A stretch of 64,000 nucleotides of DNA from Truepera sp. (GCA_965218435.1 CBDCKW010000009.1:2464001-2528000); one strand, 5' to 3'; shown: positions 21,784 through 62,311, counted from the first letter of the stretch. Numbers and translations: made by a program. The notes: generated by a model not told the origin, from the sequence alone.

Positions 21784-22299
21784 ATGATTCGCCCTGCAAC
21801 AGTTGATGACGCCCCAGACATTGCGAGGGTTCACGTCGAGAGCTGGCGCACGACTTACCCTGGGCTAATGCCGGACGCCGTGCTAGACAAGCTTTCAGTA
21901 TCTGGGCGAGAGAAGTTTTGGTATCAGGTTTTGGGGCGAGATAAATCACAGGTTGCTTTTGTTGCAACAGACGCACAAGGTAAAGTAGTCGGTTTCGTCA
22001 ACGGCGGCTTAGAGCGTGAAAAAGACCCCGTTCACACCGCTGAGCTTTATGCGCTTTATCTTTTTAAGGAAAGCCAGGGTTACGGCTACGGCGAGGCTTT
22101 GTTTGAGGCTATGGTAGAGAAGTTTTTGGAGCAAAACCACACGGCGATGCTGCTGTGGGTGCTCTCGAGCAATCCTTCACGCGGGTTCTACGAAAAAATG
22201 GGCGGGCGTTACCTCAAAATCAAAGCTATTGACATCGGCGGCGAAACTTTAGAAGAGGTCGCCTACGGTTGGGCCGATCTGCCCAACTTAGCGAGATAA
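21784..22299 (+). CDS. GNAT family N-acetyltransferase
   Basis: IRPAT.DDA..IARVHV.SW, QG.G.G, N.SRGFYEKMG. Confidence 0.9.
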   Translation: MIRPATVDDAPDIARVHVESWRTTYPGLMPDAVLDKLSVSGREKFWYQVLGRDKSQVAFVATDAQGKVVGFVNGGLEREKDPVHTAELYALYLFKESQGYGYGEALFEAMVEKFLEQNHTAMLLWVLSSNPSRGFYEKMGGRYLKIKAIDIGGETLEEVAYGWADLPNLAR

Positions 22300-22661
22300 G
22301 CTAAAGCCAGCGCGTAAGCCGCATAATCATCAATGAGTTCGGGCGGGGTTCTTAATCCCTGCGGTAAAAGACGTTGTAGACCCCTCGGTGGCCGGTCACG
22401 AAAGTAGAGGTTGCGGGCAGTGAGGCTCGAGCCCCATTCGTCTACGACTTCAAACTTTATTCCTCTCCCAGTAAGCAGGTTTTTTACGGTGTCGCTACCG
22501 GTTCCGTCACCGACTAAGACGGTGGCGGTTGGGGGGAACTCGAGAGCTTTTAGCTGTACCAAATCTAAAACATCATGAAACCCCAGCGTCCCAGCTTCTG
22601 AAACAAACGCCACGCCGATATTGCGGCCTGGGTCTAGTGCGACAATAAAGGCTTCAGGCAC
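22263..22661 (-). CDS. YqgF/RuvX-like RNase H-fold protein
   Basis: IVALDPG, VGDGTGS, VDE.GSS..AR, DDYAA; GTG start inferred from upstream TATGCT. Confidence 0.8.
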   Translation of the reverse strand: MPEAFIVALDPGRNIGVAFVSEAGTLGFHDVLDLVQLKALEFPPTATVLVGDGTGSDTVKNLLTGRGIKFEVVDEWGSSLTARNLYFRDRPPRGLQRLLPQGLRTPPELIDDYAAYALALAYLAKLGRSAQP

Positions 22662-22693
22662 AGCCCCAAGCATACCGCTGACAAAGACACAGT

Positions 22694-22733
22694 AAAAAAA
22701 GAGCCGGACACTTACACCTGTGTCCGACTCTTT
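22694..22733 (-). terminator. Rho-independent terminator after rpoC
   Basis: gagccggacac/gtgtccgactc stem with A7 on + strand (U7 on transcript). Confidence 0.8.
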
Positions 22734-22745
22734 GACTAGAAAGGT

Positions 22746-27323
<4,578 letters not shown>

Positions 27324-43963: not shown

Positions 43964-45493
43964 ATGAGCCGTAAAAAACCTGCAGTCTCAGCACAACCAC
44001 GCATGGGTTCGGGCGACCTCGCCGCCGGCTTTACCGTTGCGTTAGTGCTTATTCCCCAGTCCTTGGCCTACGCCGAACTCGCGGGACTGCCGGCCCATGT
44101 CGGGCTCTACGTCGCCGCCTTGCCGCCCATCGCCGCTGCCTGGTTTGCCTCGAGCCCCTTTTTGCAAACCGGCCCTACCGCCCTGAGCGCGATTTTGTCG
44201 TTTGGGATTCTGTCGGCGCATTTTACAGTGGGCTCGAGCAGCTACCTCGGAGCCGCTGCGCTCCTGGCGCTCTTGGTCGGGATTTTCCGGATACTGCTGG
44301 GTGTGTTGCGGCTGGGCTCACTCGCTTACTTTATGAGTCAACCGGTCTTGCAAGGCTTTACCAGCGCGGCGGGCGTTTTAATTCTTAGCTCACAACTCCC
44401 GAACGTCCTCAGCGTTACCCTGCCGTCCGGGGCGGCTCAGGGCGTTTTTGCTCAGCTTGGGTGGACGCTCAGCCATTTGGGAGCGGTCAGCGGAACTGCA
44501 GTTCTTTTGAGCGTGGTCACGCTCGGGATTGTTTTTTTCGGTCGGCGTTGGTCACCCCTGTTTCCCGGCGTGCTGCTCGCCGTCCTCGGCGGCCTCGGCT
44601 TCGTCCGCGTATTCGGGTACGGCGGCCCGACGCTCGGCGCTGTGCCTTCGGGGTTGCCGCTGCCGAGTTTGCACTTCCCTTGGGCGACGCTGCCGAGTTT
44701 GCTCATCGGGGCGCTGGTGATCGCCGCAGTGGGGTTTGCCGAGCCCGCCGCGATTGCCCGCACCTTTGCCCGAGAGGGACAGCTGCGCTGGAACCCAGAC
44801 CGTGAGTTTGTCAGTCAGGGCGTCGCCAACCTCGCGGTGGGGCAGTTTCAGGGATTTCCGGTCGGGGGCAGTTTCTCGAGGAGCAGCTTAAACAAACTAG
44901 CCGGGGCCAAAAGTCGCTGGAGCAGCCTGGTCACGGGCCTGGTCACTCTGGCCTTTCTCCCTTTTGTCACCGTGCTGTCAAATCTGCCCAAAGCTGTGCT
45001 GGGCGCGGTTATCGTCACCGCCGTGGTTAACCTCATAAGGGTTGACGAGCTGACAAAGCTCTGGCGGGTCGCGCACTTTCAGGCGCTCACCTCTTAGGCC
45101 ACCTTTGCGCTGACGCTTTTGCTCGCCCCCCGAATTGACTACGCAGTGCTGCTCGGCGTCGGTTCGGCGGTCGCGCTGCATCTGTACCGCGAAACGCAGC
45201 TCGGCGTTCACCGTTACCGCAGCGACGACGCGCTCGTGTTGGAGCTTTCCGGCGTGCTTTATTTCGGCTCGGTGTATCAGCTCGAGGCTCAAACAGGCGA
45301 CTTGACCAGCGCCCTGAGTACGGTTTCGGACATCGCCGAAGTCGTCATTGACGCGGCGCAACTCGGGCGCGTGGACCTGAGTGGGGCGGTAGCATTAGAC
45401 GAACTGCGTAAACGGCTCGAGGCTGAAGGAGTCAGCGTGCGTATCATCCATTTGCGGCCTCACGTTCGTCATATGTTGGAACAGTTGCGGTAG
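43964..45493 (+). pseudogene. SulP/SLC26 anion transporter with STAS domain, interrupted by one in-frame TAG (45095-45097)
   Basis: DL.AG.TVA.VLIPQSLAYA.LAG, GSFSRS; same frame continues *ATFALTLL...LYFGS...D.SG. Confidence 0.88.
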
Positions 45494-48572: not shown

Positions 48573-48588
48573 TGACACTCTCGTGACA
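48573..48588 (+). promoter_or_regulatory. TGACA-N6-TGACA direct repeat (HemR-like OmpR/PhoB box) upstream of the hemA promoter
   Basis: TGACActctcgTGACA; -10 TACCAT at 48610-48615. Confidence 0.7.
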
Positions 48589-48620
48589 GTTATTCAGAAC
48601 GGTTCCGATTACCATAGGGT

Positions 48621-49817
48621 GTGGAACGACTTGCACTTATCGGGGTCTCGCACCGGCGCGGCGGCGCGGCGGCGCTCGAGGCGTGGCAAAACGCCTTTAG
48701 CCCTAAAGTTAACCCCCGGCAGACCCTCTCCCCCGCCGGTTTTACCGAGTGGGTCCCGATTATTACCTGTAACCGCTGTGACCTCGTGGTGGCGCTGCCT
48801 AAAGGAATGGACGCGCTGGGGGCGCGGCAGGCTCTAGCGGCGTACGCCCCCGAGTTTCGCCCCTACGCCTACACCGGTGACGGCGCGTTAGAGCAGCTCA
48901 TCCGCATTGCTACCTCGCTCGACTCACTGAATCCCGGTGAAGACCAGATTATGGCGCAGGTGCGGAGCGCGTTCTCGGCGGCGCAAGCTCTGGGGAGCAC
49001 CGGCCCGACGACGAACTTCGCCTTTCAGACGGCCCTTAAAATCGCCAAAAAAGTCCGCCGTGAGGTGGCGCTCGCGCCGCTGAACACGTCGCTCTTTAGT
49101 CTGGCAAGGCCCGAGTTGGAGCGCCGGTTGCCCCGTGGCGGCACCGTCGCAGTTCTCGGAGCCGGTGAGATGGGGTCACTGGCAGCGAAGGCTCTCGCAG
49201 CTCAGGAAAATATAGACCTCATCATCGTCAACCGCAGTGTAGAACGGGCACGGCAGCTCGCCAAGCTCTTGAGGGCAAAAAGCTCGTCGCTGGGGGCGTT
49301 TTTGGCGGCCCCGCCCCCGCTGGACGCGCTGGTCTGCGCCACGCCGGTACGCGGTCTGATTGACCGGGCGCTCGTTCAAAACCTGCCCGACCTCAAACTT
49401 ATCGTTGACCTGGGCGTTCCCCGTAACGTCGAAGAGGAGGTGTCGGGACTGCCCAACCTGAGCGTCCTCGATATTGACACCTTGCAAGACGCGGGCAAAC
49501 TGCGCCGCGAAACGCTGACTCACCGTCTGGCCGAAGCTGAAACGCTGCTTCAGCGAGAGTTAGAGCTGGCGCTGAGCGGCTGGGCTGAGCGGCAGCTCGG
49601 GCCGTCTATCCAAAAGTTACGGCAACAGTACCTAAACGCCGTTCACGACACGTTGCCCGGACTTTCACCGGCAGAGGCCGAACGTCTAGCCAACCGTTTT
49701 GTCCGTGTCCCGGTGCAGGGGCTGCGAGCTGTGGCGCGGACGCACGGTTTTGAGGCGGCCGAGACGTTTCTGGCTGAAACCGGAGTTCTTACGCAGGTGA
49801 CGCCCTATGACGCCTAG
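48621..49817 (+). CDS. hemA: Glutamyl-tRNA reductase
   Basis: GVSHR, TCNR, SLDS...GE.QI..QV, GAGEMG, VNRS, DLGVPRN. Confidence 0.93.
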   Translation: MERLALIGVSHRRGGAAALEAWQNAFSPKVNPRQTLSPAGFTEWVPIITCNRCDLVVALPKGMDALGARQALAAYAPEFRPYAYTGDGALEQLIRIATSLDSLNPGEDQIMAQVRSAFSAAQALGSTGPTTNFAFQTALKIAKKVRREVALAPLNTSLFSLARPELERRLPRGGTVAVLGAGEMGSLAAKALAAQENIDLIIVNRSVERARQLAKLLRAKSSSLGAFLAAPPPLDALVCATPVRGLIDRALVQNLPDLKLIVDLGVPRNVEEEVSGLPNLSVLDIDTLQDAGKLRRETLTHRLAEAETLLQRELELALSGWAERQLGPSIQKLRQQYLNAVHDTLPGLSPAEAERLANRFVRVPVQGLRAVARTHGFEAAETFLAETGVLTQVTPYDA

Positions 49818-50724
49818 CGGCCCCGTTCGGATTGCCACACGTAAAAGCGACCTCGCGCTCTGGCAGGCGAACTGGGTCAAGGCGCGGCTGGGGGCGCTCG
49901 GGCACCCTGCCGAACTCGTTTTGATCGAAACGCAGGGCGACCGCACGCAAATAGACGGCACCCCGTTTCGGCTAATGCCGGGGCAAGGGTTTTTTACCAA
50001 AGCGGTGCAAGACGCCGTGCTGGGGGGTCACGCGGACGTAGCGGTGCATTCACATAAAGACTTGCCCTCGGCGCGGCTGGCCGGACTCGAGCTGGCCGCT
50101 GTCTCTGAACGGGCCGACCCCAGAGACGTGCTGTTAGTTAAACCCGAAGCGTTTGACGCCGACGCCCCCGCACTGCCACTGCGAGAAGGCGTCACCGTCG
50201 GTACGAGCGCGGCGCGGCGGCGGGCACAGCTTGCGCATTTGAGGGGTGACCTGGAGGTTCAAGAACTACGCGGCAACGTGCCGACACGCGTACAAAAACT
50301 TCGTGACGGCGACTACGACGCAGTTTTGTTGGCGGCGGCAGGGCTTGCGAGATTGGGGCTTGATCTTTCGGGCTTGGAGGTCATCCCGTTAGACCCACAG
50401 CTGTTCGTCCCGGCCCCGGCGCAGGGTGCGCTGGCCCTCGAAATCCGCGCTACCAACTATGAATTAGCTTCACTTCTAACCGACCTGCACAACCCGGCAG
50501 CGTACAAAGCCGTCGCCGCCGAACGCGGGTTGATGGCAATGCTAGAAGGCGGCTGTCAGCTCGCGCTCGGCGCGTATGCAGCCCTAAAAGACGGTCAATT
50601 GGAGCTTACGGCGTGGTACGACGGCAACCGCGTGACGGTCTCGAATCCATCGTCGGAAGCGGCGGCGATGCTCGCCTATGACGCGCTGGGTCGCCCCGCC
50701 CCTATCTCTACGGCGCTCAAATGA
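49807..50724 (+). CDS. hemC: Hydroxymethylbilane synthase
   Basis: IATRKS.LALWQA, AVHS.KDLP, LRGNV.TR, LEGGC. Confidence 0.96.
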   Translation: MTPSGPVRIATRKSDLALWQANWVKARLGALGHPAELVLIETQGDRTQIDGTPFRLMPGQGFFTKAVQDAVLGGHADVAVHSHKDLPSARLAGLELAAVSERADPRDVLLVKPEAFDADAPALPLREGVTVGTSAARRRAQLAHLRGDLEVQELRGNVPTRVQKLRDGDYDAVLLAAAGLARLGLDLSGLEVIPLDPQLFVPAPAQGALALEIRATNYELASLLTDLHNPAAYKAVAAERGLMAMLEGGCQLALGAYAALKDGQLELTAWYDGNRVTVSNPSSEAAAMLAYDALGRPAPISTALK

Positions 50725-51407
50725 ACGTCTTGCTGACTCACAGCGAAGGACGGCTAGAGGGTCTAGCCCCCGCTTTGCAGGCACATAGGTTTAGCGTGAC
50801 GCATCAGCCCCTCATTTACACCGAGTTTTTACCCGCGCGTGAGGCTTACGAAGCGGCTGAAAAACTGTGCGGCGCAGACTGGCTGCTGTTCTCGAGCCGC
50901 ACCGCCGTTCAAGCGTGGGCCGCTTTAGGGCTATCTTTAGACACGTATACCATCGGCGTCGTTGGGCAGAAAACCGCTGACGAAGTAAAAAAATCAGGCA
51001 GGCTGGTCTCAATGTCAGCCAAACCCGAAAACGCTGAAGGGTTACTCGAGACCTTTTTGACGCAGGTTTCGCCGCCTTTAGGGGTCGGTCTCCCCTGCGG
51101 TGAGCAAGCCTTACCGACGCTCTCGATAGGCTTAGCCGACGCCGGTTTTACAGTGACCAAAGCCGCGCTTTACCGCACCGTCACGCGGCCCCTCACCCGG
51201 CTGGACGCCGACCTTATCGTGTTGGCGAGTCCGTCGGCAGTGGCCGCACTGCCCGAAACAATCGGTCGAACGCGGCTCGTCGCCCTTGGACCCAGTACCT
51301 ATCAGGCTGTCAGAAAACGCGGTTGGCACGCGGCTGAGGCTCAAACACCCGACGTTAGCGGCGTCGTTCGGGCAGTGCTCGCTACTACTGCACTCGAGAC
51401 CCGTTAG
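50721..51407 (+). CDS. hemD: Uroporphyrinogen-III synthase
   Basis: VLLT, FSS..AV, VG.KTA, Y.T, ASPSAV, LGPST; operon position. Confidence 0.88.
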   Translation: MNVLLTHSEGRLEGLAPALQAHRFSVTHQPLIYTEFLPAREAYEAAEKLCGADWLLFSSRTAVQAWAALGLSLDTYTIGVVGQKTADEVKKSGRLVSMSAKPENAEGLLETFLTQVSPPLGVGLPCGEQALPTLSIGLADAGFTVTKAALYRTVTRPLTRLDADLIVLASPSAVAALPETIGRTRLVALGPSTYQAVRKRGWHAAEAQTPDVSGVVRAVLATTALETR

Positions 51408-51414
51408 GAGATTT

Positions 51415-52470
51415 ATGATTCAGGATAAGACCGTTTCGCTCATCCAACGCCCCCGGCGACTCCGCACGACCGCCGCCCTGCGTGACCTCATCGCCCAGAC
51501 ACAAGTACGCCCGCAAGACCTGATTGCGCCTTATTTTGTCGTGTCGGGAACGGACGTCACGCAGCCTATTGGGTCACTTCCGGGCGTGTTGAGGCTGAGT
51601 CCGGATTTATTGCTGCGAGAGCTCGAGCGCGGCCTTAACCAAGGCGTCAAAGCAGCGATGCTCTTCGGCGTCGTTCCGGGAGAGCTTAAAGACGGCGGCG
51701 GCACGCACGCGCACGACCCGAACGGCCCCGTCGCGCAGGCACTCCGAGCTGCTCGCCGCGCCTTCGGCAACGATCTTGTTTTAATGAGCGACGTGTGTTT
51801 GTGCGGCTATACCGATCACAGACACTGTGGTCTGCTGCGTACGACCCCGCGCGGCGTGGTCATTGACAACGACCCCAGCTTGGCGGCTCTAGCAGAGATG
51901 GCCCTCGTTCACGCCGAAGCTGGCGTAGATATGGTCTCACCCTCAGACATGATGGACGGGCGCGTCGGCTATTTGCGCGGGGCGCTCGACCGGGCGGGGT
52001 TTCAACATACCGGTATTTTGGCCTACACGGTCAAATATGCGTCGGCCTTTTACGGCCCCTTCCGTGACGCGGCGGGTTCAACACCTAAAGGCGGCGGAGC
52101 TGAAGACGATACGGAGAACAACCTGCAGCCCCCGAAAGACCGTAAAACCTATCAGATGGATTTTCGCAACCCGCGTGAGGCTAGGCTCGAGGTCGCTCTG
52201 GACGAAGCCGAAGGTGCCGATATGCTGATGGTCAAACCGGCGTTGGCTTACCTTGACATCTTGTATCAGATGCGGAGGGCCAGCGACTTACCTTTGGTTG
52301 CGTACCACGTCTCAGGCGAGTACGCCGCGCTCAAAGCGGCGGCAGCGGCGGGCGCGCTCGACGAGGCAGCAGCGGTTTTTGAAAGTTTAACGGCGATCAA
52401 ACGGGCCGGGGCTGACCTGATCATCAGCTACTACGCGCTCGAGGCGACCCAAAAAGGTTGGTTAGGGTAA
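51415..52470 (+). CDS. hemB: Porphobilinogen synthase (Zn type)
   Basis: RPRRLR, DVCLC.YT.H.HCG, SDMMDGRV, MVKPAL.YLD. Confidence 0.97.
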   Translation: MIQDKTVSLIQRPRRLRTTAALRDLIAQTQVRPQDLIAPYFVVSGTDVTQPIGSLPGVLRLSPDLLLRELERGLNQGVKAAMLFGVVPGELKDGGGTHAHDPNGPVAQALRAARRAFGNDLVLMSDVCLCGYTDHRHCGLLRTTPRGVVIDNDPSLAALAEMALVHAEAGVDMVSPSDMMDGRVGYLRGALDRAGFQHTGILAYTVKYASAFYGPFRDAAGSTPKGGGAEDDTENNLQPPKDRKTYQMDFRNPREARLEVALDEAEGADMLMVKPALAYLDILYQMRRASDLPLVAYHVSGEYAALKAAAAAGALDEAAAVFESLTAIKRAGADLIISYYALEATQKGWLG

Positions 52471-52548
52471 CGACTTAGCGCCGTAGCCCACAGCGGATGC
52501 CGGTTTGAGACAACATCAGGGACAGCCGGAGCGTGAGAAAATAGCGGT

Positions 52549-53730
52549 GTGAAGCGTTCTCGTATTACCTCTAGACGTGTAACCCGGATCGCTTTCGTCG
52601 TTGTCGTGGTGTTTTTGCTCGCACAGGTGGCGTGGTGGTTGATCTTTCAGGGGCGCTACATCGAACGGGTCACCCAAACGACCGTCACTTCTTGGGAGCG
52701 TGACGCGAGCACAGCAAGTCAGCTCTATCAGGCGCAGCCGAAACCACCGGTTAAAGTGCAACTCTTAAAGGTGTACCCACAGCTAAAGTTTACGGCAGGG
52801 CGTTTCGTTGTCAATCCGGTACAGCTGAGCACCTTCCGCAACGAACAGCTGGGCCACTTGCGAATGTTCGCCTTTGAAGGCCCCTTTTACGCGCTGGTGA
52901 TTTTGGCCGGGCTCTATATCATCGGGCTGAGTCTGCGGGCTGAACGCGAGCTTAAAAAGCAGCAGAAAAACTTCTTAAATGCGGTGTCGCACGAGTTCAA
53001 AACGCCGATCAGCACGCTCCGGCTGCTCGTCGAAACGGCGCTCTACCGACCCCTAAAACCCGAAAAACAGCGCGACTACTTAGGCCGGATGGAGCGCGAG
53101 GTCACTCGTTTGGAGGCGCTGAGCGAGCAAATTTTAGCCTCAGCGCGGCTCGAGCACGCTCCGATGGTCCAAACGCTGACGCCTACCGACTTAAACAGTG
53201 TCGTCAAAAGAGCGGTCGAACGCGAACGGAGCGGCCTCGAGGCGCGCGGCGCACGGCTCGAAGTTTCTTATACCCCGGACGCTCTTAACGTCGCCCTCGA
53301 CCCTTCGGCGTTTGGAACGATTCTGGGCAATTTGCTCGACAACGCCGTCAAGTACAGCCCCGGCCCGGATAAAGTGGTGCGGGTCAGGCTCGAGGCGCAG
53401 CGCCATCTCGCGTTGGTTCACGTCGAAGATGAGGGCATTGGCCTAAGCGAGAGTGAAAAAGCACACATCTTTGACCCCTTTTACCGCGTCGGCGACGAGC
53501 TGACGCGCGCGACTTCAGGCGTCGGCTTAGGGCTGCATCTGGTGCGCTCGATGACCGAAGCGATGAACGGCTGGGTCCGCTGTGACGCGCCGCTCGACGC
53601 GCAAACCGGGCGCGGCAGCCGTTTTAGTATCGTTTTGCCGAGGCGTTCGGAGCAACCTGCACCTGCCCATCCCTTACCTGTAGATTCACCCGAAACGCGC
53701 TCCACACAACCGCGCACCCTGGAAAGCTGA
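52549..53730 (+). CDS. Membrane sensor histidine kinase (Leptospira HemK-like)
   Basis: Two TMs (WW; MF..EG), SHEFKTP H-box, NLLDNAVKY, G.GLGL. Confidence 0.92.
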   Translation: MKRSRITSRRVTRIAFVVVVVFLLAQVAWWLIFQGRYIERVTQTTVTSWERDASTASQLYQAQPKPPVKVQLLKVYPQLKFTAGRFVVNPVQLSTFRNEQLGHLRMFAFEGPFYALVILAGLYIIGLSLRAERELKKQQKNFLNAVSHEFKTPISTLRLLVETALYRPLKPEKQRDYLGRMEREVTRLEALSEQILASARLEHAPMVQTLTPTDLNSVVKRAVERERSGLEARGARLEVSYTPDALNVALDPSAFGTILGNLLDNAVKYSPGPDKVVRVRLEAQRHLALVHVEDEGIGLSESEKAHIFDPFYRVGDELTRATSGVGLGLHLVRSMTEAMNGWVRCDAPLDAQTGRGSRFSIVLPRRSEQPAPAHPLPVDSPETRSTQPRTLES

Positions 53731-53739
53731 GTCCCCCCT

Positions 53740-54471
53740 ATGTTGACCCCGATGTCCTCCACCCCACCCCCGACCGTGTTGATTATCGAAGACGAAACGT
53801 CTATCGCCGACATCTTAGCGGACAACTTGCAAGACGAGGGCTACACGACGCTTTACGCCGCCGACGGGAGCAGCGGCCTGCGCTGCTGGCAAACCGAGCG
53901 GCCGAACCTGGTCATTTTAGACGTGATGTTGCCGCATCTTTCGGGCTATGAGGTCTGCCGCACCATGCGGGGGCGCGGCGACACCACACCGGTGCTTTTT
54001 TTAAGCGCCAAAGGTCAAGCCGATGACCGCGTGCAGGGTCTCCGGGCCGGGGGTGACGATTACCTCCCTAAACCCTTTCACCTCCCCGAATTTTTGCTCC
54101 GCGTTGAAAATATGCTGAGGCGTCAGCGTTGGGGTAGCAGGGGAGCCGCCCAGACGGGCGACGCACTTTATTTTGGGGGCCACAAGGTCAACTTTCGAAC
54201 CTGGACGGCGACGCTCTCGAATGGTCAAGACGAGCCTTTAAGCGAACGCGAGCTTAAAATCCTCAAACTGCTCAGTCAGCGGCGCGGCGAGGTCGTCAGC
54301 CGTGACGACATTTTAGATACTGTCTGGGGCGACGACGCGTTTCCGAGCAGCCGGACGGTGGATAATTTTGTGGTGCGGCTCCGGCGACTCTTTGAGCCCG
54401 ACCCGGCAGAGCCCCGCTATTTTCATACGGTGTGGGGTGTCGGCTACCGTTTTACCCCAGAGGGCACCTGA
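53740..54471 (+). CDS. OmpR/PhoB-family response regulator (Leptospira HemR-like); start may be 53752
   Basis: IEDE, LDVMLP, KPF, RTVDNFV.RLR, TVWGVGYRF. Confidence 0.94.
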   Translation: MLTPMSSTPPPTVLIIEDETSIADILADNLQDEGYTTLYAADGSSGLRCWQTERPNLVILDVMLPHLSGYEVCRTMRGRGDTTPVLFLSAKGQADDRVQGLRAGGDDYLPKPFHLPEFLLRVENMLRRQRWGSRGAAQTGDALYFGGHKVNFRTWTATLSNGQDEPLSERELKILKLLSQRRGEVVSRDDILDTVWGDDAFPSSRTVDNFVVRLRRLFEPDPAEPRYFHTVWGVGYRFTPEGT

Positions 54472-54484
54472 AAAAGATTAATTA

Positions 54485-54503
54485 TCTATACCCGAAGTAT
54501 AGA
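54485..54503 (+). promoter_or_regulatory. Probable vapBC operator palindrome
   Basis: TCTATAC-N5-GTATAGA just upstream of -10 TACACT (54513-54518). Confidence 0.65.
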
Positions 54504-54524
54504 CTTTAGTGCTACACTCTCTTT

Positions 54525-54761
54525 ATGGATACTGCAAAGCTTTTTAAGAACGGTCAGAGTCAAGCGGTAAGGTTGCCCAAAGCGTACCGCTTTGAGGGTG
54601 AACAGGTTTATGTCAAAAAGCTCGGCAACGCTGTAGTGCTCATCCCCTACGATGATCCCTGGGAACTGATGCTTAACAGTTTAGACAAGTTTGAGGGTGA
54701 CCTGTTCCCCAACGGACGCGAACAACCCGAGAAGGCTGAGCAGCGGGAAGGCTTCGAGTAG
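54525..54761 (+). CDS. vapB: VapB antitoxin (AbrB/MazE fold)
   Basis: AKLFKNGQSQAVRLPK.YRF. Confidence 0.93.
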   Translation: MDTAKLFKNGQSQAVRLPKAYRFEGEQVYVKKLGNAVVLIPYDDPWELMLNSLDKFEGDLFPNGREQPEKAEQREGFE

Positions 54762-55166
54762 GTGCCCTACCTGCTCGACACGAACATCTGCGTCTATATC
54801 ATCCGCGGTCGGCGGCGGGAGGTCGTCGAGCGGTTTCAGCAAAGTGCACTGAGTGACCTGCTGATCTCGAGCGTTACGACCGCTGAACTTTACTTCGGTA
54901 TTGAAAAGAGCGAGCGACGAGAACATAACCTGGAAGTTTTGGAGGCTTTCCTTTTACCCATCACGGTGCAGCCTTTTGAGGGCGGCGCGCCTAAGGTCTA
55001 CGGCAAGCTCCGGGCAACCCTCGAGCGCCAAGGCACACCCATCGGCCCACTCGATACCCTTATCGCGGCTCACGCGCTGAGTTTAGGGGCGACGCTCGTG
55101 ACCAACAACACCCGCGAATTTGAACGCGTCCCTGAGCTAAAGCTCGAGGACTGGACACGTTCGTAG
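54762..55166 (+). CDS. vapC: VapC PIN-domain toxin
   Basis: YLLDTNI, AEL.FG, D.LIAAHA, LVTNN.REF.RV. Confidence 0.94.
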   Translation: MPYLLDTNICVYIIRGRRREVVERFQQSALSDLLISSVTTAELYFGIEKSERREHNLEVLEAFLLPITVQPFEGGAPKVYGKLRATLERQGTPIGPLDTLIAAHALSLGATLVTNNTREFERVPELKLEDWTRS

Positions 55167-55206
55167 CGCCTACGGACACGAGGCGTAGCGGCCCGTACAA
55201 TAAAGC

Positions 55207-56232
55207 ATGAGCCTCTTTTTAGACGCCGCGAACGGCGAGAACACCGCCCATGCTCCCATCTGGATTATGCGCCAAGCCGGACGCTACTTGCCCGAATACC
55301 GCGCACTCAAAGAAAAACATACCTTCTGGGAGCTGTGCCGCACACCGGAATTAGCTGCGGAGATTACCCTGCAACCCATCCGCCGGTTTGGGCTCGACGC
55401 CGCGATCTTATTCCAAGACATCATGACGCCCCTGCCGCCGATGGGTTTAGACATTGACTTTACCCCCGGCCCGGTTTTTAAGACGCCGGTCCGCAGCGCC
55501 GACGCCGTAAACAAGCTCGTCGTTCCTGAGCAAAACGAGATTGCGCCGTATGTTGCTGAGGCCATCCGGCTGATTCGCGCCGAAAGTCCGGTGCCTTTAA
55601 TCGGCTTCGGCGGCGCACCGCTGACGCTCGCAACTTACGTCGTGCAAGGCGGCAGCAGCAAAGACTACGACGAGTTTCGGCAGTTTTTACGCTACGCGCC
55701 TGAGACGGCGCACAAACTTTTGGGAAAACTTACCGAAGTCTCGATTCGTTACCTCGAGATGCAAATAGAAGCTGGCGCACAGGCGGTTCAACTGTTCGAC
55801 TCGTGGGCCGGACTTCACGACGCCCGCACCTACAGGGAGTTTGCTAAACCCTACAACACCCGTATCTTTGAAGCTCTGGCTGACTACGGCGTCCCCCGTT
55901 TGTACATTGCGGTAGACGCGCTGCACCTTTACGGCGAAATTAAAGACCTACCGTGTGAAGTCGTCAGTGTGGACTGGCGCGTGCCGCTCTCGCAGGTGCG
56001 CCCGCTCCTGCCCGGAAAGGTGCTCCAAGGCAACCTCGACCCGGCGGTGTTGCTCGCGCCGGAGAAAGTCATGCAAAGGGAGACCGAACGCGTTTTACGC
56101 GAAGGGTTGGGCGGGCCGCATATCTTTAACTTGGGTCACGGCATCATGCGGCAGACCAACCCGGAACGTGTAACGCAGCTTCTCGAGGTCGTGCGGGCGT
56201 TTGACCGAGCTGAGGTGGCCGAACGTGTCTAG
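55207..56232 (+). CDS. hemE: Uroporphyrinogen decarboxylase
   Basis: PIWIMRQAGRYLPEY, QLFDSW, QGNLDP, FNLGHG. Confidence 0.97.
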   Translation: MSLFLDAANGENTAHAPIWIMRQAGRYLPEYRALKEKHTFWELCRTPELAAEITLQPIRRFGLDAAILFQDIMTPLPPMGLDIDFTPGPVFKTPVRSADAVNKLVVPEQNEIAPYVAEAIRLIRAESPVPLIGFGGAPLTLATYVVQGGSSKDYDEFRQFLRYAPETAHKLLGKLTEVSIRYLEMQIEAGAQAVQLFDSWAGLHDARTYREFAKPYNTRIFEALADYGVPRLYIAVDALHLYGEIKDLPCEVVSVDWRVPLSQVRPLLPGKVLQGNLDPAVLLAPEKVMQRETERVLREGLGGPHIFNLGHGIMRQTNPERVTQLLEVVRAFDRAEVAERV

Positions 56233-57154
56233 GCGTGAACGTGTAGTAGAAGTCTTTCAAAAAGGTCAAGCTGAGCTGATTGCGGCATTTGAGTCTTTGG
56301 ACAGCACGGCGAGCTTTGGCCTGCACAGCTGGGAGCGGCCTGGGGGCGGGGGGGGAACAGCAAGGGTTTTAGAAGGCGGGTGCGTCCTCGAGCGCACCGG
56401 GATCAATTTCTCCGCTGTTCACGGCGACGCCGTACCCTCGAGTCTCGCCGCAGCTCACCCCGGCAGTGAAGGCAAACCCTATTTTGCCACCGGTTTATCC
56501 ATGGTCTTTCACCCGCGCAACCCCTACGCCCCGGCGTTTCACGCGAACTACCGCTACTTTGAAGTCGGCAGCGAGGCGGACGAGAGCGACATCTGGTGGT
56601 TCGGCGGTGGCGCGGATATGACGCCGAACTACCCTTTTGCCGAGGATATTATTCACTTTCACCGAACGCTCAAAGCGCAGTGTGACCGGCACCTGGTTGG
56701 TGATTACAGCACACTTAAAAAGACCTGCGACGATTACTTTTACATCAAACACCGCCGTGAGATGCGCGGCGTCGGCGGGATTTTTTTCGATGAACTTTCG
56801 CCCGTCGGCCAAAACGACTTCGAGACCGACTTTGCCTTTATCCAAGACGGCGTGCAGACGCTGCTCGAGCTTTATCTGCCCATCCTCGAGCGCCGCAAAG
56901 ATACCGTTTACGGCGAACGCGAACGGCAGTGGCAACTTTTACGGCGCGGACGCTACGCTGAATTTAACTTGGTGTACGACCGGGGGACGACCTTCGGCCT
57001 GCAAACCGGTGGGCATATCGAAGCGATCTTGATGTCACTGCCGCCCTACGCGCACTGGGCCTTTGATGTTCAGCCCGAAGCAGGGTCGCCCGAAGCGGAG
57101 ATGCTGAATTACCTACAACCACGGGATTGGGTGGGCGAAACCGAACTTGTTTAA
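56225..57154 (+). CDS. hemF: Oxygen-dependent coproporphyrinogen III oxidase
   Basis: W.RP.GGGG, HP.NP..P..H.NYRYF, WWFGGG.D, RGVGGIFFD, RRGRY.EFNLVYDRGT.FGL. Confidence 0.96.
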   Translation: MSRRERVVEVFQKGQAELIAAFESLDSTASFGLHSWERPGGGGGTARVLEGGCVLERTGINFSAVHGDAVPSSLAAAHPGSEGKPYFATGLSMVFHPRNPYAPAFHANYRYFEVGSEADESDIWWFGGGADMTPNYPFAEDIIHFHRTLKAQCDRHLVGDYSTLKKTCDDYFYIKHRREMRGVGGIFFDELSPVGQNDFETDFAFIQDGVQTLLELYLPILERRKDTVYGERERQWQLLRRGRYAEFNLVYDRGTTFGLQTGGHIEAILMSLPPYAHWAFDVQPEAGSPEAEMLNYLQPRDWVGETELV

Positions 57155-57214
57155 GCCCAAAAGATTGGTCTGCTAAAGGGCATACGTCCTGTAGGGCGGC
57201 GGGTAAAATACGGT

Positions 57215-58357
57215 ATGGATCAGAGCAGCACGACTCAAGGCCCCACTGGAATCGTAATGATGAACTTGGGCGGCCCGAAGACGCTTGACGACGTAAGGCC
57301 GTTTTTACTCAAGCTCTTTGAAGACCGCGAAATTATTCAGCTCCCCGCGCAGCGATTTCTAGGGCCGTATATCGCCAAACGGCGGACTAAAAGCGTTCAG
57401 CAAAAGTACGATGAGATCGGCGGCGGCTCGCCTATCTTGGCGTGGACGGAGGAGCAGGGGCGCGGCATGTGTGAACGCCTCGATAAGCTGTCGCCGGAGA
57501 CCGCGCCGCATAAATTTTACGTGGCGTTTCGTTACGTGCATCCGTTTAGCGAAGACGCACTTCGGCAGATGAAAGCCGACGGGATCAAACGGGCCGTCGC
57601 CTTTACGCAGTACCCACAATTTTCGTGTTCGACGACCGGCTCGTCACTCAACGAACTCTGGCGGGCGGCGAAAAATGTCGGTTTGCAAAACGACTTCGAG
57701 TGGAGCGTCATAGACCGCTGGCCGACGCACCCACGTTTTATCGAAGCGATGACGGAGACCGTCAAACAGGGATTGAGTCAGTTTACCGAAGCTGAACGCG
57801 ACGACGTTTTGATCCTCTTTAGCGCCCACTCGCTGCCCCTAGACGTCATCAACCGGGGCGACGCCTACCCCGCCGAAATCGGCGCGAGCGCCCACGAAGT
57901 GATGAAACGCCTTGGCTACAGTCACGAGTACATGGTCAGCTATCAGTCGGATGTGGGGCCGGTACCGTGGCTCGGGCCGAGTACGGAAAAAGTCATCGAA
58001 TCTTTGGGTGAGAAGAAACGGCGGAATGTGCTGGTCGTCGGCATCGCGTTTACCAGTGACCACATCGAAACGCTGCACGAACTCGACATCGAATACGGCG
58101 AAGTCGCGCACAAAGCCGGAATCACCAACTTCAAGCGGGCACCGGCCTTAAACGGGTTGCCGGTTTTTCAAGACGCTTTAGCCGAAGTTGTTCTTGAACA
58201 TCTGCAGAGCGGCGAGGCGTGCAACAAGCAGTACGGGCTGCGCTGCGCGGGCTGCGTCAATCCGCAGTGCCGCAATATCTTAAATCCGGTGGCACCGTAC
58301 AAACGCACCAATGTGAGTATGTCCAAAGAAACCAAGCAGTATAAAGCTGCACTTTAA
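57215..58357 (+). CDS. hemH: Ferrochelatase, animal/fungal-like with [2Fe-2S] Cys motif
   Basis: NLGGP, IGGGSPI, YPQFSCSTTGSS, FSAHSLP, WLGP, FTSDHIETL.ELDIEY, C-terminal CAGCVNPQC. Confidence 0.96.
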   Translation: MDQSSTTQGPTGIVMMNLGGPKTLDDVRPFLLKLFEDREIIQLPAQRFLGPYIAKRRTKSVQQKYDEIGGGSPILAWTEEQGRGMCERLDKLSPETAPHKFYVAFRYVHPFSEDALRQMKADGIKRAVAFTQYPQFSCSTTGSSLNELWRAAKNVGLQNDFEWSVIDRWPTHPRFIEAMTETVKQGLSQFTEAERDDVLILFSAHSLPLDVINRGDAYPAEIGASAHEVMKRLGYSHEYMVSYQSDVGPVPWLGPSTEKVIESLGEKKRRNVLVVGIAFTSDHIETLHELDIEYGEVAHKAGITNFKRAPALNGLPVFQDALAEVVLEHLQSGEACNKQYGLRCAGCVNPQCRNILNPVAPYKRTNVSMSKETKQYKAAL

Positions 58358-58413: not shown

Positions 58414-58968
58414 ATGCTCGAGTTTTCTTTACCTACCATGTCGGTCGAAGAATACCTGGCGTGTGAACAAAAAGGCGACGTTCGCCATGAATACGTCAAT
58501 GGTTATGTCTACGCTTTGGCAGGTGGCACCAGTCGCCATAACCGTATCTCTCTAAACATTGCTGCCCACTTTTTGCAGCTGGCACAGAGCAAACCGTGCC
58601 GCGTCTACCAAGAAGGCATGAAACTTCGCACCGAAGACAACGTTTTTTACTATCCGGACGTGATGGCAGTCTGCGGCAAACCTGAACCCGACCCTTTTTT
58701 TGAAACCGAACCGTGCGTGTTGGTCGAAGTTTTGTCACCGAGCACCAAAAACACCGACCTACGCGAAAAACTGACCGCGTACAAAAGCTTGCCGAGTGTG
58801 CAGACCTATCTGATTGTCGAGGCTGAGCGGCTGGCGGTGCGGCGGTTTTGGGTAGATGATACGCGCCGCTGGCAGCAAGAAGACCTGACCGGCGACGGCG
58901 ATATCCCGCTGCCTTGTCTGGACGGGGTGCTGAGTTTGCCGCAGATTTACCGAAATGTTTTTAGCTAG
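58414..58968 (+). CDS. Uma2 family endonuclease
   Basis: RHEYVNG...A.AG....H, YYPDV, VEVLSPST...D..EK. Confidence 0.92.
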   Translation: MLEFSLPTMSVEEYLACEQKGDVRHEYVNGYVYALAGGTSRHNRISLNIAAHFLQLAQSKPCRVYQEGMKLRTEDNVFYYPDVMAVCGKPEPDPFFETEPCVLVEVLSPSTKNTDLREKLTAYKSLPSVQTYLIVEAERLAVRRFWVDDTRRWQQEDLTGDGDIPLPCLDGVLSLPQIYRNVFS

Positions 58969-58976
58969 CAGCGTGT

Positions 58977-59390
58977 TCAGCTAAAAGGGTTTTGTACCTG
59001 TACCCCTGCAACGACCTGACCTGCATTTAGGTCTTCCGAGTACAGAACCTCACACCCTAAACGTGCCGCACTGGTGAGAATCATTGCGTCCCAGAACGAA
59101 ATAAGTGTCTCTTGGTGGAGTTTGATAGCGCTTATTACATCCAAGGCTGTCGGCTCGTGAACAGTCCAGTGCGTGTAGCGTTCTACAAGTTGACTTGCAG
59201 CTACCGGCGTGAGCAACTGTTTTCCGGTCGTAACCGTGTAGAATTCTTGCAGTACTTGTACGCTTAAACCGCCCTCAAATGACTCCCAGAGGTTACGCAC
59301 GAGCGCTGCAGCCTGTTCACGCTTTTCTCCTGCAGAAGTGTCGTGCGCGTAAACCAGTACATTGCTATCAATGAACGCCTTAGCGCTCAT
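58977..59390 (-). CDS. PIN-domain toxin
   Basis: FIDSNVLVYA.D, QVLQEF, SFWDA.I, LYSEDL..GQ...NPF. Confidence 0.9.
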   Translation of the reverse strand: MSAKAFIDSNVLVYAHDTSAGEKREQAAALVRNLWESFEGGLSVQVLQEFYTVTTGKQLLTPVAASQLVERYTHWTVHEPTALDVISAIKLHQETLISFWDAMILTSAARLGCEVLYSEDLNAGQVVAGVQVQNPFS

Positions 59391-59622
59391 GCAGTTCGTC
59401 CCTCGTCCAGCTCGCTTTGCCGTAAGTGCCTAGATTATAGCCCTGCTCGAGCGCAGCCAGCGCCTCTCTTTTAGCACGGGCGTAGTCGCTCTCGTCGGCG
59501 ACGAGCGCCTCGAGCTTCTCCCGCAACATCGCCGAAACCGATGTACCCCGCTTCGCCGCAATAACTTTAACCTCTCGGAGCGTTTCTTCGGGCAGTGCTA
59601 GGGTAATATTTCGCATCGCCAT
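59380..59622 (-). CDS. RHH/CopG-type antitoxin
   Basis: RNITLAL.......K..AA..GTSVS, WTRDELHER; upstream TTACGTG direct repeats flank a TACACT -10. Confidence 0.85.
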   Translation of the reverse strand: MAMRNITLALPEETLREVKVIAAKRGTSVSAMLREKLEALVADESDYARAKREALAALEQGYNLGTYGKASWTRDELHER

Positions 59623-59673
59623 ACTTCACCTCACGTAAAAGAGTGTAACACGTAAGTTTGTGTGTTTACGGCA

Positions 59674-62311
59674 CTACAAATCCCCGAAGAGCCCGGACTG
59701 CGCGCCTGCTTCCCTCACTTCAGGCGCTTTACGCTCCGCGTCCGTTGGGATAGGAAAATCCGCCGCCGCAAACACCTCGCCGGAGACGACCGCCGCCAGT
59801 TTTTCCGAAAGTTCAGGCCACGCCGCTACCGTCGCCTCGAGCACCCACAAAAGTTCTAAGAGTTCCCGCGTCAGCTCCGCCGTCCAGCGTTCGGGGCGAA
59901 TTTTATCGAGGTCAGAGGACGAGCGCCCCGCCCGCTCCCGCATCCGGTAGCCGAGCCAGCTTTTTACCACGCTCAAGCCCGATACCGAGAATGCCCACAC
60001 CTCCGGCGAGACCGGGCCAAACTCACCCGCGCCCACGTGCAGCGTTTTGCTCTCCGGGTCATACGAAAAATCGTTGGGATACGCTTCCGGCGCGTTCGGC
60101 ACCGCCACTGTGTTACGCGCTTCACCTCGCGGCACGCTGCCGCCGAACCGTTCGCCGCCCAGCCTTTCACCATAGGTGTGTAGCCCGATGAGCGAACGCC
60201 CAAGTGCCGCCACTTCACCAAAGAGCGCCGCATCTTTTGTCACCGGCAGACGCGGCCCCGGCAGCACCAGCTCTTCAGAAAATGTTTCGACGTAAGACGG
60301 CGAGGCCAAAAGCCTGTAAGCGTAGGCGAAAAAGTCTTCGGGAGAGACCGCAAAGTCATACGTTTCTGCCAGCACGTCTAAAAGCCCCGCTGTAACGTTC
60401 GGTTCAGAGGCCGCCGCATCCCGCCAGAGGGGAACTGCTCGACCATTACGACCATGAAAATAGTTCATGTCGGGAACGTAAGCAGATACGGAAGCACCAG
60501 GGCCGACACCTAGAACTTCAGTAAACAGAGTCGTCATGAAAACCTGCTTTGCACTGTATGTGTACCAAAGGTCATTACGAAAACGGTCAGCAAAGCGCGT
60601 ATCTGCATATATCCATTGCTTATCAAAACTGCGAAAGCCATAGCACGTTATCGGCGGAGGCGGGGCATCTTGCGGCAACGAAGCTAAAGCAGGCGCTCTC
60701 GAGCCGTCCAGATTTTCGTAAACACCGCTCACTTTGCGGGCACCTGTTTCACGGAATAGTTGGGCTCGTCTTTCCGTGGAAGCTGACAAAAATGTCTTCC
60801 AACGTTGCACCAGAACGTCTTTTATCTCAGAAATCGGCCAACTACACTTAAGCTGTGACCCTGAGTGCTGCCACGGAAACAAATCGGTTAAAAAAGGCCA
60901 ACTATGGTAATCGCCTGTACCTTCTGGCAAAAACGGAGCTTTCCAGTCTAAAAAGCAGTCTTGCCACGTCACATTACTGAAGCTTTGAATCTGGGTGAGT
61001 TGCTCGAGCTTTCCTTCTTTCGTTCCTTCTAATTTCGCGTAATGCACCTTCGCAGGTTCATCCGGTTTCGGTTTCCCGTACCGCACACCTACGGCAATCG
61101 CCACGGGCGTCTGGATGTTAAAGACGTTTTGCGTCTTGCATGCGCCTAAGCTGTCGCCTTCCAAATCCAAAATCCACAGCTCGTCGAAGGTGCGGCGCAG
61201 GTGTTCGCGCATCCCGACAAAACCGGGGCCGCGCAGGTAGCTGGCGGCGGTAATAAACGAGATGATGCCCGCGTCCTGCGGCTGCTCAAAGACTTTCCAA
61301 AGCGCCCAACGCCAAAAGTAGACATAATCGTTGTACAAGTTTTTGATGTGCCCGCCCTGACCGGCGTCCACGGCGGGTTGCGTAAAGTCTTTTAAGATGC
61401 CGTTCGTTTGGTCGTTTAGGTTTTGCTGACCAAAACGCACCCAACCGCCTTTAAGTGCCACTTTATTTTTGAGGTCGTCTTTATCGCGCGTTTGCCGGTC
61501 GTATGGCGGATTGCCGATGCAGACCAAAACGCGAGTGTCTTGTTTGACCTCTCTAGCGCGGCGGTGTTCTTCGGTCAGGCGGCGGTACATGAGGCCGTGC
61601 TGCTCCAAGTCTCTGGCTTCGGGGGACTCGAGGGTGTCCGCCAGATAGACATGCACCCCGTCGGCGGGTAGTTCGCCGCCCTCTTCCATCACCTTTTGCG
61701 TCACGCGCAGGTGCGCCACCGCGTAGGGGCCGACGAGAAACTCTAACGCGTGCAGGTTTTGCGCGACCTTCGTGGCGTACTGGCTCCGCATTCCGGGGCC
61801 GTAAAACTCGGCGACGTTCTCTAAGGCGTGTTGCAACACTGCGAGCGGATACGCGCCGGTTCCGGCTGCCGGGTCGAGCACCACGACATCATCTTCAGCG
61901 TAGGCCAGGGGTTTGTCGAAACGGGTTTCTAAAAGTTCAGCGACGAGTCGCACCTGCGCTTGAATGACCGGCGCGGGCGTGTAATAGACGCCGTAATCGT
62001 TGCGGAGACGGCGGTCATAGGCAGCCAAAAAGTCTTCGTAAAAATAGAGCTATAGGTCAGGGCCATTAGGCCCAGGCACTGAGTGCCTAACCTGGGGGTC
62101 GTTGCCTTCTTTGCTCAGGGCTGCCGGGTCTACGGCGGTGATGGTCCGAATCAACGTCTAAACCGACACCCACGTCGCGGCGGGCCTCACGGTCGCTTAA
62201 AATCACCAGCGTTTGGGCGAGGAGACCGTGACCGGACTCGAGGGTTTCGGCGGCCCGTTCGGGCCGGACGTTCTCCGCGCCGCTAAAGCGGGTCAAAAGG
62301 AGCGCGTAGGT
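59674..62311 (-). pseudogene. Fused restriction-modification enzyme (Type IIG/ISP-like N6-adenine MTase plus TRD), 5'-truncated with frameshift and TAG
   Basis: GVYYTP, LDPAAGTG, IGNPPY; upstream DL*LYFYEDFLAAYD with TAG at 62050-62052, frameshift near 62150, similarity ends at TYALLL near 62311. Confidence 0.85.

Follow-up and report, generated by a model that had tools for sequence, protein, structure and literature searches.

To our knowledge, the HemKR two-component system has been studied only in Leptospira, and how bacteria control heme synthesis at the level of transcription has been worked out in detail for a small number of lineages. Heme is also sensed by the two-component systems HssRS of Staphylococcus and Bacillus and ChrSA/HrrSA of Corynebacterium, HrrA acting on heme-synthesis genes as well. 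In PhoR/PhoB, a dimer of the OmpR/PhoB family bound to 11-bp direct repeats replaces the −35 element and activates transcription, the phosphate signal coming via PstSCAB/PhoU. We describe here a 64,000-nt stretch of a Truepera sp. genome (positions 2464001-2528000 of contig C9 of genome G000, which has 4.8 Mb and 57% G+C), hereafter the window, which carries a histidine kinase (P0001, 52549-53730, plus strand) and a response regulator (P0002, 53740-54471, plus strand) inside a heme-synthesis (hem) cluster. With a probability of roughly 0.8, we consider them to be relatives of Leptospira HemKR, the phosphorylated regulator being predicted to dimerise on a direct repeat upstream of hemA and likely to activate the whole operon.

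In Leptospira, the pair is also named Hklep/Rrlep (LEPBIa1423/1422 in L. biflexa; LB014/LB015 in L. interrogans). According to the accessible part of PMC11426443, phosphorylated HemR activates hemA and the hem-box is TGACA[N6]TGACA, HemR also represses hmuO, and roles are assigned to the residues H98 and T102 of HemK and D53 of HemR; the site itself was derived from SELEX in Morero 2014 (PMC7318608, accessible part). Upon exposure of L. biflexa to 5-aminolevulinate (ALA), HemK dephosphorylates HemR, a phosphatase activity that requires T102 and shuts HemKR down, and whether ALA itself is the ligand is left open in the accessible text of PMC11426443. An earlier reading of the window from its sequence alone (the sequence-only reading) had cited the binding of HemR to this motif and the activation of hemA, in agreement with that source; the response of HemK to ALA, which it had also cited, stands as the shutdown of HemKR through the phosphatase activity and not as a statement about ALA as the ligand. 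Its placing of the Leptospira pair in the hem operon before hemE holds for pathogenic species, where hemK and hemR lie between hemL and hemE, and not for L. biflexa, where they lie elsewhere (PMC2266917, accessible part); the same part mentions a similar hem linkage in Bdellovibrio, as data not shown (Louvel 2008).

The cluster of the window runs in the order hemA-hemC-hemD-hemB-kinase-regulator-vapB-vapC-hemE-hemF-hemH on a single strand (48621-58357), as confirmed with NCBIfam and Pfam, and its neighbouring open reading frames (ORFs) overlap or sit at most 78 nt apart. Pfam assigned HisKA and HATPase_c to the kinase, and Response_reg and Trans_reg_C to the regulator; together with hydropathy, these calls bear out the sequence-only reading, which had seen a kinase with two transmembrane segments (TM1 and TM2) and an OmpR/PhoB-type regulator inside a hem cluster. 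Upstream of hemA lies the direct repeat TGACA-CTCTCG-TGACA (TGACACTCTCGTGACA; 48573-48588, plus strand), the predicted operator of the regulator encoded in the operon, with its half-sites at 48573-48577 and 48584-48588 on either side of the 6-nt spacer CTCTCG. It begins 48 nt 5' of the GTG start codon of hemA (48621), and 21 nt separate it from the −10-like hexamer TACCAT (48610-48615, plus strand), which is followed 5 nt later by the GTG; the perfect repeat and the hexamer had both been named in the sequence-only reading and can be read directly in the sequence. A scan with the sigma-70 consensus found no −35/−10 pair at this hemA, with no −35 at 16-18 nt from the −10. Counted from the −10, the box occupies about −49 to −34, which is where PhoB-type activators stand in for the −35 element. 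The hemA mRNA is probably leaderless, because its start codon coincides with the expected start of transcription.

The exact motif TGACA-N6-TGACA is found twice in the window, as compared to 0.03 expected from 100 dinucleotide shuffles, the second occurrence (44965-44980, minus strand) being within a SulP permease ORF. In this SulP sulfate-permease region (43964-45493), a separate ORF (45119-45493) encodes the STAS domain, so that the gene is possibly split or frameshifted. Over the 4.8 Mb of the genome, a scan proposed by the sequence-only reading returned 11 exact boxes (about 6 are expected from base composition, or about 2 by scaling the shuffle rate of the window), and the hemA box is the only one that adjoins a heme gene. 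The neighbours of the other ten are a solute-binding-protein (SBP)/ABC transporter, a LuxR-type protein, a permease/methyltransferase pair, an ABC exporter, a sigma factor, a DUF6463 protein and trpF, or else the box falls inside an ORF; we considered these ten as operators and take them as chance occurrences, near unrelated genes or within ORFs. The ORFs of contig C5 are arranged identically in two stretches (21881-26137 and 263959-268215), each with one and the same exact box (TGACACGTGCCTGACA), and this contig also holds two near-identical pairs of OmpR-type regulator and kinase, near positions 403291 and 645375. Large duplications are therefore present in C5.

Of the 301 genomes sampled from the phylum Deinococcota, 122 (G000 included) encode a full-length homolog of the kinase at E ≤ 1e-40. 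Without G000, the kinase-positive genomes number 89 of 102 in family f1, 0 of 112 in f2, 24 of 62 in f3, 1 of 14 in f4 and 7 of 10 in f5, a tally that takes in genome G407, which is marked as unpublished and was otherwise unused; homologs about 54-56% identical are labelled 'Trueperaceae bacterium' in the source records. Our set of relatives comprised 40 loci, 31 of which contain hemA and supplied the promoters scored for the box. The kinase follows hemB in all 31 hemA-containing loci (31/40 overall), the regulator follows the kinase in 30 of these 31 (the exception being L061), and hemE lies downstream of the regulator within the locus in 27 loci. Across four families of the phylum, 29 of these 31 loci have a perfect box ahead of hemA, at 49-56 nt from the start codon in 27 of them and at about 150 nt in the other two. 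Gene position and box are thereby conserved in a phylum distant from Leptospira, as the sequence-only reading had supposed. The ten half-site positions are invariant save for a single mismatch in L068. Spacer sequences scatter around CTTTCG, and there is a tendency for either half-site to be prolonged to TGACAcT. Of 31 promoters with a box (the window included), 20 have the hexamer TAnnnT 3' of it, at a distance of 21 nt in 18 loci and of 20 nt in two; f3-type promoters, read by eye, have GATAAT about 22 nt after the box. A metagenome contig with a Deinococcota-type cluster (L155) also carries the box, 52 nt before hemA. The conserved box is a ready phylogenetic footprint of the operator across Deinococcota.

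The box and the pair also go together in their presence and absence. In seven kinase-less genomes examined (five of f2 and two of the f3 genus g36), we found no box with up to one mismatch in the 400 nt upstream of hemA; 11 of the 13 f1 genomes without a kinase match also gave no hemA match with the query used, and in G447 the contig ends too early for the hemA neighbourhood to be judged. Conversely, three genomes have the pair unlinked from hemA, at a distance or on another contig, and all three kept the box at −50 to −52. Genome G393 has hemA-C-D-B followed by the regulator without a kinase, and it kept a perfect box at −51. Its regulator, 62% identical and directly after hemB (L136, G393:C1:1999000-2015000), is an orphan HemR-like regulator, no kinase being found genome-wide at E ≤ 1e-40. 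In the single-contig genome G297, no match to hemA was found and the pair follows an importer, in the order Peripla_BP_2, FecCD, kinase, regulator (L074:5410-10446). A perfect box (TGACAGTTCTATGACA) stands there 116 nt ahead of the gene for the binding protein, and the locus also has a divergent ABC ATPase. The pair is there again linked to heme or iron, and the switch seems to have been rewired from heme synthesis to uptake. Two loci of genus g8 (L093, L094) have the kinase directly upstream of hemH; a regulator is missing beside it, as is a box within 400 nt, and G331, the genome of L093, gave no match to hemA.

To compare the pair with HemKR itself, we located the reference proteins by means of published primers. 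The Leptospira rrs primer (PMC7066766) led to one metagenome-assembled genome of the Leptospirales, G001, and the hemK primer was then found in 33 of the 156 genomes of its order; in the L. biflexa-type genome G087, eight of ten published primer strings match exactly at one locus, which encodes a HemK of 295 amino acids (P0123), carrying H98 and T102 as published, and a HemR of 227 amino acids (P0124). An exact scan of genome contigs with the published hemK primer gave no match, and a tblastn search of HemB against plasmids, seeking a Leptospira chromosome II record, returned none among the 60 matches listed. Searched against G000, L. biflexa HemK retrieved the window kinase as the best hit (78 versus 53 bits) and HemR retrieved the window regulator (123 versus 121 and 120 bits); the HemK and HemR of genome G070 likewise retrieved the window pair first (75.5 versus 61 bits and 148 versus 114 bits). 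The phosphoacceptor D61 of the window regulator aligns with D53 of HemR.

A further hem-linked pair of the Leptospirales is that of G020, a 6-Mb genome of this order in which hemA, hemCD, a 449-aa ORF, a kinase, a regulator and hemE follow one another. There, the hem-linked regulator is the best hit of the window regulator (184.5 versus 129 bits, 45% identity), the hem-linked kinase is that of the window kinase (116 versus 94 bits, residues 14-373 aligned), and the G020 proteins in turn retrieve the window pair first in G000. The best hits are reciprocal with the G020 pair and not with those of the genus Leptospira.

Phylogeny, which the sequence-only reading had named as a check, did not place the pair among unrelated OmpR pairs. 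A maximum-likelihood tree of 47 regulators was built from that of the window, 21 of the relatives' loci (19 further ones were left out for size), three hem-linked ones of Leptospirales, 15 paralogs of G000 and the seven top paralogs of G087, G070 and G020. It split the 25 hem-linked regulators (22 from Deinococcota, three from Leptospirales) from the 22 paralogs at 99/99, and a tree of kinase cores with 43 rows placed 18 paralogs on one side at 92/79. The recognition helix of the window regulator, FPSSRTVDNFVVRLR, contains the motif FP[ST]xRT[VI]DN, which is present in 25/25 hem-linked regulators, while DN is found in 0/22 paralogs. The box lies upstream of hemA in all four Leptospirales loci examined (L104, L106, L107 and L108), the order in L104 being hemB-hemL-HemK-HemR-hemE. 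In L104, L106 and L107 the box is followed by 19 nt, a −10-like TATAGT, TAGAAT or TACTAT, 6-12 nt and ATG; in L108 it lies 69 nt ahead of the start. The Deinococcota promoter has the same layout (box, 21 nt, −10, 5-9 nt, start) with a difference of 2 nt from that of Leptospirales. These comparisons place the pair within the HemKR family, taken broadly, and the repeat is very probably the operator of its regulator.

The kinase consists of TM1, an outer loop of about 75 residues, TM2 and then directly the DHp (H148, T152) and ATPase domains, the hydrophobic segments being at about residues 10-36 and 106-131 by hydropathy. Neither Pfam nor the AF2 model (pLDDT 86.5) shows a domain, HAMP or PAS included, between TM2 and the H-box, and the outer loop is modelled as helix extensions, a short helix and a hairpin. 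H148 and T152 align with H98 and T102 of HemK, the threonine being at H+4. Among 16 kinases of both phyla, W29, W30, M106 and E110 in the N-terminal region are invariant, like H148 and T152, and R105 is nearly so; W29, W30, R105, M106 and E110 are all at the outer membrane edge. We speculate that WW in TM1 and R-M-x3-E before TM2 form a candidate site for reading the signal. The sensor region of the window kinase spans about 130 residues, as compared to the short form of Leptospira type, in which both transmembrane segments and the loop fit into the first 80 residues; G020 has the long form too. An ESM Atlas search with kinase residues 1-170 returned only generic HisKA clusters (0.90-0.93).

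With Leptospira HemKR, the Truepera locus has in common a two-transmembrane HisKA kinase devoid of a cytoplasmic sensor domain, with the H-box threonine at H+4, an OmpR/PhoB-type regulator with an RT[VI]DN helix, and TGACA-N6-TGACA just upstream of the hemA −10; with pathogenic Leptospira, it also shares the place of the pair before hemE inside the hem cluster (PMC2266917 and PMC11426443, accessible parts). It differs by the low identity of the proteins, by the loop (about 75 versus about 30 residues), by the distance from box to −10 (21 versus 19 nt), and in that hemL is outside the cluster and no hmuO, exbBD or receptor targets with perfect boxes were found in this genome. As for the pho box of PhoR/PhoB, a regulator dimer is predicted here, from sequence, on direct repeats in 11-bp register at the place of the −35; the sequence of the repeat and the signal differ, PhoR/PhoB is not known to be linked with heme, and the window regulator scores below the cut-off of the PhoB model (165 versus 296 bits). 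HssRS and ChrSA/HrrSA resemble the Truepera pair as cases of two-component control of heme homeostasis; by their descriptions, however, they sense heme, control efflux or heme oxygenase, lie outside the hem operon and use other operators.

Several observations weigh against regarding the pair as a HemKR-like regulator of heme synthesis. From TM2 onward its kinase is 30% identical to L. biflexa HemK, and its regulator is 31% identical to HemR, values that are ordinary for the family; in the HemR search, the window regulator leads two other G000 regulators by 2-3 bits. Of the reciprocal BLAST that the sequence-only reading had suggested, the direction from L. biflexa to the window pair held and the forward one did not: in G087, HemK ranks 9th for the window kinase (58.7 versus 88.6 bits) and HemR 3rd for the window regulator (111 versus 156 bits), the ranks in G070 being 7th and 2nd. 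The support of the kinase tree is moderate and long branches meet in it, and the paralogs of the trees were drawn from four genomes only. Two of the 31 relatives' promoters are damaged, with one mismatch in the L068 box and a degenerate box in L071, and in L080 and L085 the box lies about 150 nt 5' of the predicted hemA start instead of the usual 50 nt or so, owing either to a long leader or to a misplaced start. Lastly, the regulon appears limited to the hem operon, and narrower than in Leptospira, because hemL and the hemY-like gene of this genome have no box within two mismatches and no heme oxygenase was found in it.

Three other explanations have to be weighed with these points in mind. 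The regulator of the same pair might bind the same operator as a repressor, blocking RNA polymerase over the −35, with the signal relieving or imposing the repression. The box indeed overlaps, at about −49 to −34, the expected place of sigma-70 region 4, a further point against activation, and Leptospira HemR represses a gene as well as activating another (PMC11426443, accessible part). However, nothing at 16-18 nt from the −10 can be recognised as a −35, the second half-site is 20-21 nt from the −10 and thus too far to be a −35, and the box stands relative to the −10 nearly as at the Leptospira hemA, which phosphorylated HemR activates according to the same part of PMC11426443; we therefore deem repression improbable. 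That the repeat instead belongs to the promoter itself or is bound by some other factor, the pair controlling other genes, could be suggested by the resemblance of GTGACA to the −35 consensus TTGACA and by the unrelated genes that adjoin the ten other exact boxes of the genome. This is very unlikely, given that both half-sites, in 11-bp register, are invariant, that the box is present or absent together with the pair, and that the motif is the same as the experimentally defined HemR site (PMC11426443, accessible part), the recognition helix being common to both.

A more serious contender accepts that the pair is HemKR-like by descent and proposes that it senses another cue (heme, iron, oxygen or the state of the envelope) via its larger loop, ALA playing no part. 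The loop is about 75 residues long in Deinococcota and in G020, as compared to about 30 in Leptospira HemK, and the signal may differ for this reason, which also counts against a strict equivalence with HemKR. Furthermore, conserved motifs (YPHL and others) mark the Deinococcota loop and have no counterpart in Leptospira HemK, the G297 pair sits on an importer operon, and the accessible text of PMC11426443 does not establish the true ligand in Leptospira itself. Against this, the residues invariant in both phyla are at the membrane edge and not in the loop, and G020, a member of the Leptospirales, has the long loop too. We regard a different cue as possible, though on the whole unlikely, and we retain the HemKR-like pair with its hem-box as the preferred reading.

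By analogy with Leptospira, we propose the following sequence of events for the HemKR-like pair. The phosphorylated regulator would bind as a dimer to TGACA-N6-TGACA at about −49 to −34 of the −35-less hemA promoter, and would activate the transcription of the whole hem operon. When ALA, or a porphyrin further along the pathway, accumulates, the kinase would act as a phosphatase and the regulator would be dephosphorylated; hemA would then be transcribed less, and a negative feedback would be closed. The pair would also regulate itself, because it would be transcribed from the same hemA promoter. What the sequences show directly is the homology of the proteins, the place of their genes, a conserved operator that occurs together with the pair, and a common recognition-helix motif; we infer activation, self-regulation, the ALA or porphyrin signal and leaderless transcription.

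The other genes of the cluster, all on the plus strand, are as follows. The hemA gene (glutamyl-tRNA reductase, 48621-49817, GTG start) matches TIGR01035 at 2e-48, below the cut-off, and Pfam GlutR_N and Shikimate_DH; hemC (hydroxymethylbilane synthase, 49807-50724) matches TIGR00212 above the cut-off with 263 bits; hemD (uroporphyrinogen-III synthase, 50721-51407) matches Pfam HEM4 with 107 bits; and hemB (porphobilinogen synthase, 51286-52470) matches NF006762 with 428 bits, its true start being probably near 51430, as the family match begins only at ORF residue 52 or so. Downstream of the pair, hemE (uroporphyrinogen decarboxylase, 55207-56232) matches TIGR01464 with 379 bits, hemF (oxygen-dependent coproporphyrinogen oxidase, 56201-57154) NF003727 with 389 bits, and hemH (ferrochelatase, 57215-58357) TIGR00109 with 362 bits. 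The region 3' of hemH (58414-62028) holds a gene for a Uma2-family endonuclease and, on the minus strand, a second PIN-domain gene (58977-59390) and a gene resembling a Type ISP restriction enzyme (59674-62028).

Between the regulator and hemE lie vapB (54525-54761) and vapC (54762-55166), on the plus strand, which score above the cut-offs of NF047862 (104 bits) and NF047863 (174 bits), the NCBIfam 'VapB/VapC Leptosp' equivalogs (tRNA-fMet endonuclease type). They are outside the conserved circuit: besides the window, vapBC was met in only three of the 40 relatives' loci (L058, L060 and L065, which represent three genera). The junction is the same each time, as the result of either an old insertion with many losses or repeated insertion. 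A promoter-like CGGACA-17-TACAAT lies 3' of vapBC, at 55173-55201. The 'Leptosp' models suggested a transfer from Leptospira, which we rejected, since the pair is conserved in four families of the phylum and the Leptospira hem locus L104 has no vapBC.

Outside the two phyla, an exhaustive profile search returned among its best 150 matches many full-length look-alikes of the kinase (356-415 residues), mixed with multi-domain kinases. Of ten that were looked up, one is named 'Deltaproteobacteria bacterium', one 'Thermoanaerobaculia bacterium' and one bears a generic name. The metagenome contig of the first (L141, kinase P0182) carries hemA, hemC, the kinase, a regulator 50% identical to ours and hemE. 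Upstream of its hemA there is no TGACA box even with one mismatch allowed, and the recognition helix of its regulator reads RAIERH, not RT[VI]DN; helix and box changed together in this single case. A word-based protein search with the sensor region of G020 gave 19 matches, with source names of Leptospirales or 'bacterium' only.

By analogy with Leptospira, it is likely that the heme feedback switch of spirochetes also works in Deinococcota. We further put forward, tentatively and as a whole whose parts have somewhat less than even odds of all being right, that HemKR and the hem-box are an old heme-homeostasis module that crosses phyla and is not a peculiarity of spirochetes. The operator, the promoter geometry and the recognition helix would have stayed fixed from Leptospirales to Deinococcota, the long-loop kinase would be the ancestral form, helix and box would have changed jointly in one further lineage or more, the module would have been rewired to a heme or iron importer where hemA was lost, and the WW and R-M-x3-E residues would read ALA or a porphyrin. 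Our literature search found no paper describing HemKR in Deinococcota. The system went unnoticed there because the kinase is absent from all 112 sampled f2 genomes and from the two genomes of the f3 genus g36 that were checked individually (G159 and G162), groups which probably include the model genera. A system thought to be leptospiral thus turns out to be widely conserved and to have an operator whose footprint is clean, and it offers many natural variants of the kinase, probably including thermophilic ones, for asking what HemK senses and how a kinase almost devoid of a sensor reads it.

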